NCBI GenBank assembly: GCA_030679895.1
Contig: JAUXSN010000055.1
Location: 1-58,234 of the forward strand
From: Candidatus Moraniibacteriota bacterium
Lineage (GTDB): Bacteria; Patescibacteriota; Minisyncoccia; Moranbacterales; UBA11712
Length of the DNA: 58,234 nt
Direction of reading: 5' to 3'
The notes under the pieces are model-generated. The model saw only the letters and a program-made list of their open reading frames with translations, searched no databases and had not been told where the DNA came from. This document shows positions 3,645 to 7,011 of the stretch, piece by piece (positions within the stretch are counted from its first letter, which is position 1; each line of letters opens with the position of its first letter). The position numbers were made by a program, and so were the translations under genes.

Positions 3645-4850
3645 TTAGCGGGAGCGTAACGCTTCCAGCGGATCAAGCGCGCTCGCTCTTTTAGCCGGAC
3701 CGACGCCGGTCGCGAATCCGATAAAAATGGAAAACGCGATAATAAATCCCAAGAACCAAAACGGGTAGGCAAATAGATTCAGGCTTTTACCGCCAAAATA
3801 TTTCGCGGCGATATTGAAAATCAGATTGACAGTTTGTCCCGACGCGACGCCGAGGATTATTCCCGCGATCCCGCCGAAGAATCCCATCAGCGTTGATTCG
3901 ATGATAAACATAGAGAGAATATCCATTTTCGACGCGCCAATGGAACGCATAATTCCGATCTCGCGCGTCCGCTCAAGAAGCGCGACCGTCATCGTGTTAA
4001 ACATTCCGATTGATGAAACCGCGAGAGTGACAATGCCGAACAAACTAAGAACGATATTGACCACCCGGAACAGCTTGTTCACTTCGGCGACTGTTTCCGA
4101 AAGCGACGAAACAGAAAAGCCTTTTTGGGAAATCACGTCGCGCGCCGTGCTCATAACGTCGCCCGAATTGCATTTCACTTTCACCTTCGCGAATGGAATA
4201 TCCGCCGGAATGTTCAGCTCGTCTGCCACGGCATAGAATACCGTGTCCTCGCTTTCCGTGACGCCCGCAATCACATAGTCGCCCGCGTCGATATTCGCCC
4301 CGCCTGGCGAGGCTGGAAGCAGAGAAAAAGAAACTTTTTGCCCGACAAGATCCTTTGGATTCTTGCCGAATACTTTTCCAATGGCGGACGAGGCAAGAAT
4401 TTCTTTGGGATTTTTTTTGCTCGCCTCGCTGGAGCTTTGGCGAAGCGGGTCGAGCAATTTTCCGGCCGCGATTTTCAAGCCTTCGAGTTCAAGATAGCCG
4501 GGACTGGCGATCACCGCGCGCGCATCTGATCCCGTATCGCCGATTTTGAGCCTCGCGTTGAAATTATAGCTCGTTTCAACCCCATCCACCCCGTCAATTT
4601 TTTTTATCTCTTCAACTGCGGCCGCCGTGAGAAATTTTCCGTCCTGCTCATTCGGCGCGACATCAAGCGCCGTGAGCGCCCCCGACGATGTGATCGTCTG
4701 GAGGAGGGCGTTCTGAAGGCCGTATCCCAAAGAAACCAAAAACAAAATTGCTCCGAAACCGATCCCCATGCCCAAAACCGTAAGGGCTGTCCGCCCCCGC
4801 CGAGCCGTAAACATACGGGTAGAAAGTTTGAGTAAATCCTTAGTAGTCAT
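3645..4850 (-). CDS. ABC transporter permease, MacB/FtsX family
   Basis: RTALTVLGMGIG N-terminus, periplasmic domain, IGMFNTMTVALLERTREIGIMRSIGA, C-terminal PAKRASALDPLEALR. Confidence 0.92.
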   Translation of the reverse strand: MTTKDLLKLSTRMFTARRGRTALTVLGMGIGFGAILFLVSLGYGLQNALLQTITSSGALTALDVAPNEQDGKFLTAAAVEEIKKIDGVDGVETSYNFNARLKIGDTGSDARAVIASPGYLELEGLKIAAGKLLDPLRQSSSEASKKNPKEILASSAIGKVFGKNPKDLVGQKVSFSLLPASPGGANIDAGDYVIAGVTESEDTVFYAVADELNIPADIPFAKVKVKCNSGDVMSTARDVISQKGFSVSSLSETVAEVNKLFRVVNIVLSLFGIVTLAVSSIGMFNTMTVALLERTREIGIMRSIGASKMDILSMFIIESTLMGFFGGIAGIILGVASGQTVNLIFNIAAKYFGGKSLNLFAYPFWFLGFIIAFSIFIGFATGVGPAKRASALDPLEALRSR

Positions 4851-4852
4851 GA

Positions 4853-4892
4853 GAATCTCTACGAATTACTAATTTTGTACGAATATACGAAT
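4853..4892. repeat. Left terminal inverted repeat of the GxxExxY cassette
   Basis: gaatctctacgaattactaattttgtacgaatatacgaat is the near reverse complement of 5290-5330. Confidence 0.85.
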
Positions 4893-4898
4893 CAATGA

Positions 4899-5291
4899 TT
4901 ATCTTAGCTTTATGATTCTTTTGTATCTGATACCGCTTTTCGTGAAATGGATTAGCAAACCCAGTTTTAATTTTGTTGCTCTTAAATATGAATAAATTTG
5001 AGCAATATCTTTTTTGGAAAAATAATTTCTTTGTTTTATTTCAATGACCATTTTTCCGAAAACGAGAAAATCAAAATAATAAATTCATAAATCTTTATCC
5101 TTGTATCACAATTTCACCTGCAGCTGTTCTTTAAAATCTATCTTATTTTTCCTAAAGACTTCTGAAATTACTTTCTGATAAAATTTTTCTTTATGGCCAT
5201 ATCCAAACTCGTTGAAAACATAAAACACCAAACCAATTATTTCATAACATTCTTTCGCATAAATTAAATCTTTTCTTGTTTGCACATTCAT
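4899..5291 (-). pseudogene. GxxExxY protein gene with two in-frame TGA codons (5106-5108, 5085-5087)
   Basis: The same frame continues past both TGAs as YKDKDL*IYYFDFLVFGKMVIEIKQRN...YLRATKLKLGLLIHF...KRII to TAA at 4899; motif GHKEKFY; PD-(D/E)xK-like DF..EIK; 130 codons in total. Confidence 0.85.
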
Positions 5292-5330
5292 TCGTATATT
5301 CGTAATTGCTTCGTAATTCGTAGAGGATTC
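5290..5330. repeat. Right terminal inverted repeat of the GxxExxY cassette
   Basis: attcgtatattcgtaattgcttcgtaattcgtagaggattc. Confidence 0.85.
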
Positions 5331-6876
5331 ACATCGAATATCTCGCCAGCATTATAATTTCGAGTTCCCGCGCGATTTTTTTCGCCGTCCGGCGGTCAAG
5401 TCCGACTCCCCCCTTCACTATCGGCCGGTCGGCAAGATCAAGAAGCTCGTCCATCGACAGTTCGTTTTCAAGGCGCATTTTGATGTATTCGAGAAATTTA
5501 ATCTTTTCCATTTCACCGAGTTTCAAGTGAAAATTTTCATCCAGATATTGCATAGTATCTTCCGCTGATTTTTCAACATTCGCAAAGTCAATTTTTTTCA
5601 CCTGATCAAAAATTTGCGTGATTCCCTTCACTAATCGTTTGGCCTGATTATGATCCCACCCGGCTCCCCCCTTATTTTCCTCTTCTACAAGCCTTTTTTC
5701 AAAATCCTCAAGTGTGATCCCGCCCGCGATGAAGTCCTGAAAGATTTTCTTGGCGAGATCAAGCTGCACCTCGGGAATATGGAAAAAAATATGGGAGAAA
5801 ATCTGCTGGGCTTTGAATGGAACAAGGAGCGTCCCGACCTGATCGGGAGAAAAATTTCGAAAAGACCGCGTCAGAGCCAGAAGTTCCGGAGAAATATGTT
5901 CGCGCTTTCTTTCGGCGAGATCTTCTTTTTTCACCAGCTCGTATTCTTTGCCCAGATCCCAATCACCGCCCGCTTTTCCTTCCTTGAAAGAGCTCCAGGC
6001 TTTGCCAAGCTCTTCTTTTTTGACGAGTTCCCAGTCTTTATCCAGCTGTCCCTTCTTTTGAAGCTCCCAGGCTTTGCCCAGTATGCCCTCTTTGAATGAT
6101 TCCCATTCCTTCCCGATTTTTTGCTGTTCTTCGAGATATTCCTGATCGCCCTTGGCGCTAGGTGATTTTTTTTCGAGAACCTCGACGATCTTCGTGATCT
6201 TTCCGTCCTGCATATGGATTATCCGGTCGCCGTAAGCGAGATGTGACGGGTCATGGGTAACAAGAATGATGAGTTTCTTGTCAACTTCATTGAGCTCTTT
6301 CAAAATCGTGAGAACATTATAGGTGGCTTTGGAATCAAGGTTTCCCACCGGTTCGTCCGCGACGATGATCGCGGGACTGTTCATAAGCGAGCGGGCGATT
6401 GCCACTCTCTGCCTTTGCCCGCCGGAAAGATCCGCGGGAAATTTTTCGGCTTGCGCTTCGATCCCAAAACGTTTGAGAAAATTCATTCCGTCCTCTCTTC
6501 TTTTTGATGAACTGTCTCCGGAAAAAGCCCGCGGAAGACAGACATTGTCAATCACGGAAAGGGTGGAAACAAGATAAAATGACTGAAAAACCATCCCTAT
6601 TTTGTGGCGATGGAATTCCAGTTTTTCTTTTTCCGAAAAAGAAGTGAGATCGCGGCCGTCGATTTCTATTTTTCCGCCAGTCGGGCGAAGAAGTCCCGTG
6701 ATTATATTGAGGAGCGTCGATTTTCCGCAGCCGGAAGGACCGAAAAGAATGAGGTATTCGTGAGGATATATCTCAAGATCAATATTGTCCAAAATTCTGG
6801 CTTCATTGGCTTTTCCTTCATTGAAGACAGTGCTCAATTTTTCTATTTTTATCAGTGGCGCGGCTGTTGAGTTCAT
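5329..6876 (-). CDS. ABC transporter ATP-binding protein (LolD/MacB-like) with a long C-terminal extension
   Basis: Walker A GPSGCGKST, LSGGQRQR, Walker B IIVADEP, VTHD; about 280 extra C-terminal residues; start taken at MNSTAAP. Confidence 0.9.
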   Translation of the reverse strand: MNSTAAPLIKIEKLSTVFNEGKANEARILDNIDLEIYPHEYLILFGPSGCGKSTLLNIITGLLRPTGGKIEIDGRDLTSFSEKEKLEFHRHKIGMVFQSFYLVSTLSVIDNVCLPRAFSGDSSSKRREDGMNFLKRFGIEAQAEKFPADLSGGQRQRVAIARSLMNSPAIIVADEPVGNLDSKATYNVLTILKELNEVDKKLIILVTHDPSHLAYGDRIIHMQDGKITKIVEVLEKKSPSAKGDQEYLEEQQKIGKEWESFKEGILGKAWELQKKGQLDKDWELVKKEELGKAWSSFKEGKAGGDWDLGKEYELVKKEDLAERKREHISPELLALTRSFRNFSPDQVGTLLVPFKAQQIFSHIFFHIPEVQLDLAKKIFQDFIAGGITLEDFEKRLVEEENKGGAGWDHNQAKRLVKGITQIFDQVKKIDFANVEKSAEDTMQYLDENFHLKLGEMEKIKFLEYIKMRLENELSMDELLDLADRPIVKGGVGLDRRTAKKIARELEIIMLARYSM

Positions 6877-7011
6877 ATGAATATGGGAATTTTTTCTTTT
6901 TACAGTATAACATATATTGTTCCTATCCGCCTCATTGCGGCTATTTGACCCCTCGGACATAAATGGGCTAGAATAGAGCTAGTTATTGTTTGATTTTTAA
7001 AAATAAATATT

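Follow-up and report, generated by a model that had tools for sequence, protein, structure and literature searches.

The interrupted gene and the code of its host

The window, a stretch of 58,234 nucleotides from a Candidatus Moraniibacteriota genome, carries on its minus strand a short gene of the GxxExxY (PDDEXK_3) family which lies between two host genes. The upstream neighbour encodes an ABC transporter ATPase (5329..6960, minus strand) and the downstream neighbour an FtsX-type permease (3645..4850, minus strand). The GxxExxY gene itself (4899..5291) was delimited by its frame, HMM matches, an alignment and a structure model. It comprises 130 codons and a TAA stop, and it forms the cargo of an inserted cassette of 480 nt (4851..5330, minus strand), in which it is flanked by two inverted arms.

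The frame runs on the minus strand from an ATG at 5291-5289 to the TAA at 4901-4899 with zero frameshifts. It is interrupted at codon 62 (5106..5108) and at codon 69 (5085..5087), where TCA triplets of the plus strand read as TGA. The initial annotation of this DNA had described two such codons, seven codons apart, in a GxxExxY gene with no frameshift and a full-length downstream half. All of these points proved correct: apart from the TGAs the frame is open to its TAA, and the read-through product of 130 residues matches two family profiles from end to end, with scores well over the cut-offs (TIGR04256, 96.4 bits versus a cut-off of 35; PF13366 PDDEXK_3, 93.9 bits versus 22). Together with this full-length match, the product shares with the family the GxxExxY motif (G32-E35-Y38), which is invariant in the alignment, and the PD-(D/E)XK core residues D74, E84 and K86. 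The latter are encoded and equally invariant, and all three lie 3′ of the first stop. The window copy differs from the family in being broken by the two stops. With no uninterrupted frame under the host code, it is a pseudogene member, and this dead copy is the only GxxExxY gene in the window's genome. An Rfam scan of positions 4700-5500 at E ≤ 1 returned zero matches.

Codon 69 corresponds to a glycine which is invariant in all 34-35 aligned relatives and belongs to the motif L-G-I-Y-x-F-D-F. The annotation had placed the second TGA, from family knowledge, on a glycine preceding a Y..DF motif, and the alignment confirms this. Codon 62 is not a glycine position: the three closest relatives have lysine there, and elsewhere in the alignment the residue is variable, mostly lysine. 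Cysteine, which would be expected at a site of selenocysteine recoding, occurs at neither position in any relative.

The AlphaFold model of the read-through product (pLDDT 89, pTM 0.81) adopts a PD-(D/E)XK-type fold with the order alpha-alpha-beta-beta-beta-alpha-beta-beta. In this model, the first core strand ends with residue 62, the second contains residue 69, and both residues precede D74, E84 and K86. The nearest solved folds in a fold search are Cas4 SSO0001 (4ic1), lambda-type exonucleases and Hjc-type resolvases, at a TM score of about 0.5; a profile search of the PDB by sequence gave no match, and the distant PD-(D/E)XK matches come from the fold search only. A survey of the superfamily from 2012 lists the function of the GxxExxY family as ‘Unknown’, with ‘multiple transfers’ (PMC3424549). 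In the literature we found no functional study of GxxExxY, PDDEXK_3 or PF13366 proteins, only that survey.

The host genome (1.03 Mb in 57 contigs, 44.6% GC, 97.7% complete) encodes release factor 2 (prfB, 467 bits, over the curated cut-off), and none of its 38 tRNAs has a UCA anticodon. Among 612 host frames of at least 250 codons, 307 end with TAA, 159 (26%) with TGA and 146 with TAG. TGA is a stop codon in this host; the annotation had stated that the host ends genes with TGA, and the release factor, the tRNA set and the stop counts all agree with it. The same three observations rule out a reassignment of UGA in the host. A reading of UGA as tryptophan (code 4) is also ruled out, as codon 69 is an invariant glycine and tryptophan is found at neither position in the aligned relatives. 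Since TGA is a stop here, translation halts after residue 61. In the wider phylum sample, an RF2 match over the curated cut-off was missing in 34 of 401 genomes, a figure to be read as a loose bound only, and G182, a genome of the same class with 100% completeness, gave a single release-factor match only.

The cassette, its arms and its insertion site

The cassette occupies exactly the space between the ATPase stop codon and the permease ATG, which adjoins the cassette end directly. Each of its arms is an array of four TACGAAT-type heptamers, inverted relative to the other arm. On the 5′ side of the gene, the arm (5285..5325, minus strand) has the arrangement TACGAAT TACGAAg .. TACGAAT a TACGAAT and runs into the ATG. 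On the 3′ side, the arm (4857..4897, minus strand) follows the TAA and is 83% complementary to its counterpart over 41 nt. RNA folding pairs the arms in both the minimum free energy and the centroid structures (z = -4.2), and this pairing brings the upstream stop beside the downstream start.

The site is empty in close relatives. In contigs of the groundwater metagenomes X2 and X3, whose flanks are 95-97% identical to the window, position 4850 is joined to position 5331 via 10 nt, AAATTTCTTT. Two genomes of the same genus (G001 and G002) have TAA-T-ATG at the site, with a spacer of 1 nt, and contain no GxxExxY gene. The present ATPase stop, TGA (5331-5329), consists of a host T and the first GA of the cassette; in the empty alleles and the same-genus genomes this stop is TAA. 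A search for a target-site duplication at both ends of the cassette found none; the insert stands in place of the empty allele's 10-nt spacer and does not split it. The empty site in relatives shows that the cassette is a recent insertion, polymorphic among close strains. As an observation apart, the ATPase of the upstream gene (5329-6960, minus strand) has a C-terminal extension of roughly 290 residues, which is unusual for a MacB/LolD-type ATPase and contains repeated tryptophan-containing units (KEWESFKEG, KAWELQKKG, KDWELVKKE, KAWSSFKEG, GDWDLGKEYELVKKE).

In composition the gene is foreign, with 26.5% GC versus 44.6% in the genome. At the loci of the three closest database relatives (L004-L006) the cassette GC is similarly 27-28%, and the same arms bracket the GxxExxY gene, although the neighbouring genes differ. 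Clusters of TACGAAT or ATTCGTA flank GxxExxY genes in many Patescibacteria and at several Bacteroidota loci. In the literature searched, we found no paper on flanking repeats of GxxExxY genes. The window unit resembles these TACGAAT-heptamer cassettes in its four-heptamer inverted arms, its stop-to-start placement and the existence of gene-less miniatures. It differs from them in that the cargo gene is dead and is the genome's only GxxExxY gene.

The arms are also found without a gene. In the groundwater metagenomes X2-X4, the arm sequences (window positions 4853-4898 and 5286-5325) reach a summed contig depth 30-50 times as high as the host genes that flank them, which indicates that the arm family is carried by many organisms in these communities. 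Many X2-X4 contigs join both arms via a loop of 22-29 nt, so gene-less hairpins are abundant there. The window's genome itself holds one complete gene-less hairpin, two solo arms and one partial arm. The complete hairpin (G000:C15:54785-54895) has the same four-heptamer arms with a loop of 36 nt and adjoins an ATG directly; its loop, TATTTTTCGCGTATTTGCAAGAATTT, was found again in an X2 contig which joins both arms. The solo and partial arms of the same family are located at G000:C26:10457-10495, C48:24236-24282 and C35:36969-37050. Two of them are placed from a stop codon to the following ATG: the C26 arm follows a TGA-ended gene and precedes a dCTP-deaminase-like ORF, and the C48 arm separates the stop of dnaB from the gene after it. 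The partial C35 arm ends directly before an ATG.

A further point of comparison is provided by the intervening sequences of rRNA genes (23S_rRNA_IVP or S23p type); ORFs in rRNA insertions of CPR bacteria have been reported (PMC11270868). The likeness consists of a small ORF within a long stem of inverted flanks, placed in a transcribed region. The window cassette differs in that it lies in the spacer of an mRNA operon, carries a PD-(D/E)XK cargo and not a four-helix bundle, and has no Rfam match.

Natural alleles and the decay of the nuclease gene

Run X1, which holds the whole stretch, yielded an independent Logan contig (6810 nt, depth about 10) with zero differences from the window over 4577-5900; this agreement is between contig and contig, and contig assembly would hide a minority intact allele. 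Run X2, from a different groundwater study, contains a sister allele. A 556-nt contig of this run spans window positions 4759-5314 free of gaps and covers 92 nt of the permease 5′ end, the left arm and the whole gene. The inclusion of the 92 nt of FtsX sequence shows that the sister copy has the same left junction as the window; the contig ends inside the right arm, and the shared junction is demonstrated on the left only.

The sister gene and the window gene are separated by 14 differences. With these 14 differences applied, the sister allele has an open frame of 130 codons under code 11, in which codon 62 is CGA (R62) and codon 69 is GGA (G69). Each TGA of the window is therefore one substitution away from a sense codon of the sister, C>T at codon 62 and G>T at codon 69. 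The presence of an intact sister copy at the same site shows that the TGAs are ordinary nonsense mutations, with an alternative genetic code playing no part. A second X2 contig, more distant at about 82% identity, has AGA at codon 62 and GGT at codon 69. Of the database relatives, the three closest (82, 77 and 75% amino-acid identity) are all intact with 130 residues; at codon 62 they have AAA and at codon 69 GGT, GGA and GGA, respectively.

This comparison was widened to 146 distinct homologous copies drawn from species-representative genomes, metagenome contigs and the genomes of relatives. The window copy is alone among them in having TGA at codon 62 or 69. At codon 69, GGN is present in 134 of about 144-146 distinct copies, and codon 62 is a glycine codon in one of 146. 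The named relatives belong to Moranbacteria, other lineages of the Parcubacteria group and some Bacteroidota, all of which use code 11, and include no Gracilibacteria or Absconditabacteria. A sample of 400 genomes of the phylum gave no match of more than 50% identity outside the order, and an internal TGA in none of 36 matches. In a Nealsonbacteria contig (L094 / L165, MHMF01000005.1), the GxxExxY match spans residues 69-129 only, although the contig extends upstream by about 80 nt. This copy, too, may be truncated or decayed.

The 14 differences between window and sister were polarised with three outgroups. On the window branch, S43, K48, stop 69, M81 and K128 are derived, which amounts to five replacement changes and one silent change. 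Stop 62 is unpolarised, the sister having CGA and the three outgroups AAA; taken as derived, it brings the window branch to 6:1. The four replacements other than stops on this branch are non-consensus. On the sister branch, the count is four silent changes and a single replacement, a conservative one. A one-sided Fisher test of 6:1 versus 1:4, in which the codon-62 stop is counted, gives about 0.05. These substitution patterns are as expected if constraint was relaxed in the window lineage while the sister stayed under purifying selection. The lack of a frameshift or gross damage counts against decay unless it began very recently.

Members of the GxxExxY family often carry in-frame stops. In the other copies these comprise 12 TAA, three TAG and three TGA, a TGA share near the expected 19%: from the sister sequence, 15 of the 80 one-step nonsense paths (19%) lead to TGA. 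That both of two independent stops should be TGA is expected in about 3.5% of cases. The coincidence is mildly unusual and to that extent counts against two independent mutations, but it is unremarkable for a feature chosen after the fact.

The origin of the two stops and their meaning

The annotation had offered two alternatives for the TGAs, two independent nonsense mutations or acquisition from a donor which reads UGA as glycine. The former stands and the latter does not. It is very probable that the locus harbors a recently acquired, hairpin-framed GxxExxY cassette whose sole gene was killed by two independent single-base substitutions, CGA>TGA and GGA>TGA. Code-11 homologues with CGA and GGA at these sites had been named in advance as the mark of simple pseudogenisation, and this is what the sister allele and the relatives display.

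Glycine as the meaning of UGA (NCBI table 25) is documented in Gracilibacteria and Absconditabacteria (PMC8629427), and a cassette from such a donor would have carried glycine codons which became stops on arrival. The TGA on the invariant glycine of codon 69 is what this origin would predict, and it is the sole likeness to table-25 recoding: a conserved glycine underlies one TGA and not the other. Codon 62 is lysine or arginine in close relatives and glycine in a single copy of the 146, so the expectation that both TGAs stand at glycine positions fails. The modest chance of drawing TGA twice (about 3.5%) and the foreign composition of the gene also speak for such a donor, but the low GC belongs to the cassette family as a whole, as the 27-28% of the three closest loci illustrate. 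The host, for its part, has RF2 and lacks tRNA(UCA), and relatives and sister allele use ordinary sense codons. The nearest homologues, in which code-25 lineages or TGA or glycine at both sites had been sought, are instead code-11 copies with CGA/GGA, AGA/GGT, AAA/GGT and AAA/GGA. Every relative with a name belongs to the Patescibacteria or Bacteroidota and uses code 11, the phylum sample holds neither a match above 50% identity outside the order nor an internal TGA among its 36 matches, and codons 62 and 69 are free of TGA in all of the other 145 copies. Above all, the sister copy at the same junction is open under code 11 with CGA and GGA. We reject the code-25 donor, the most improbable of the explanations considered.

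Two other readings concern the reality and the use of the stops. The TGAs could be errors of sequencing or assembly, or belong to a minority allele of a gene that is really intact, and the X1 depth of only about 10x, with evidence at the level of contigs, leaves some room for this. However, the two assemblies show no difference over 4577-5900, an assembly at 10x is unlikely to contain two specific substitution errors seven codons from each other and in a non-homopolymer context, and the four further non-consensus replacements fit real decay; we consider such an artefact very unlikely. The stops could also be functional. Among bacterial stop codons UGA is the leakiest, and with the remainder of the frame intact, read-through of two leaky UGAs might throttle a potentially toxic nuclease. 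Yet the host possesses RF2 and lacks a suppressor tRNA, and the product made by reading through both stops in succession would be negligible in amount. The arrangement is found in no other copy among the 146, the sister allele is plainly open, and non-consensus replacements accumulate on the window branch. A regulatory use of the stops therefore appears slightly less probable still than an artefact.

The reading as a recent cassette with a mutated gene starts from what the comparisons demonstrate: the gene has two stops in a host that reads TGA as stop, the sister allele is intact, other strains have the site empty, and replacements are in excess on the window branch. The cassette inserted between the ATPase and permease genes. 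After settling, the nuclease would have escaped selection in the window lineage, or have been selected against, and would now be decaying. The predicted fragment of 61 residues would keep the two N-terminal helices and the GxxExxY motif and lose the whole catalytic core (D74, E84 and K86); judged from its sequence, the nuclease of the window copy is predicted to be null. The arms would still be able to pair in the operon transcript and to set the ATPase stop beside the permease start, and this pairing may be the reason why the insert is tolerated. We take the cassette to be a selfish element, with its mobility and the role of its nuclease inferred.

As a finding on the genetic code, the case is an ordinary one. 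The TGAs leave no trace of a transfer between codes, and claims of gene flow from code-25 lineages should not rest on them. Its remaining value is that of a dated example, with three alleles, for the family of hairpin-framed GxxExxY cassettes. Empty, intact and decayed alleles among strains with flanks about 95% identical support a recent insertion and a rapid decay of the nuclease. Several arms and hairpins without a gene are still present in this genome, whose sole GxxExxY gene is dead. Whether the 480-nt unit represents an undescribed class of mobile cassette, composed of a minimal PD-(D/E)XK GxxExxY nuclease and the inverted heptamer arrays that frame it, and present as three natural alleles in close groundwater strains, we hold to be evenly balanced. 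If it does, the locus would provide a population-level record of insertion followed by nuclease loss, and a natural test of whether the gene-less hairpins of this genome are stranded without their enzyme.
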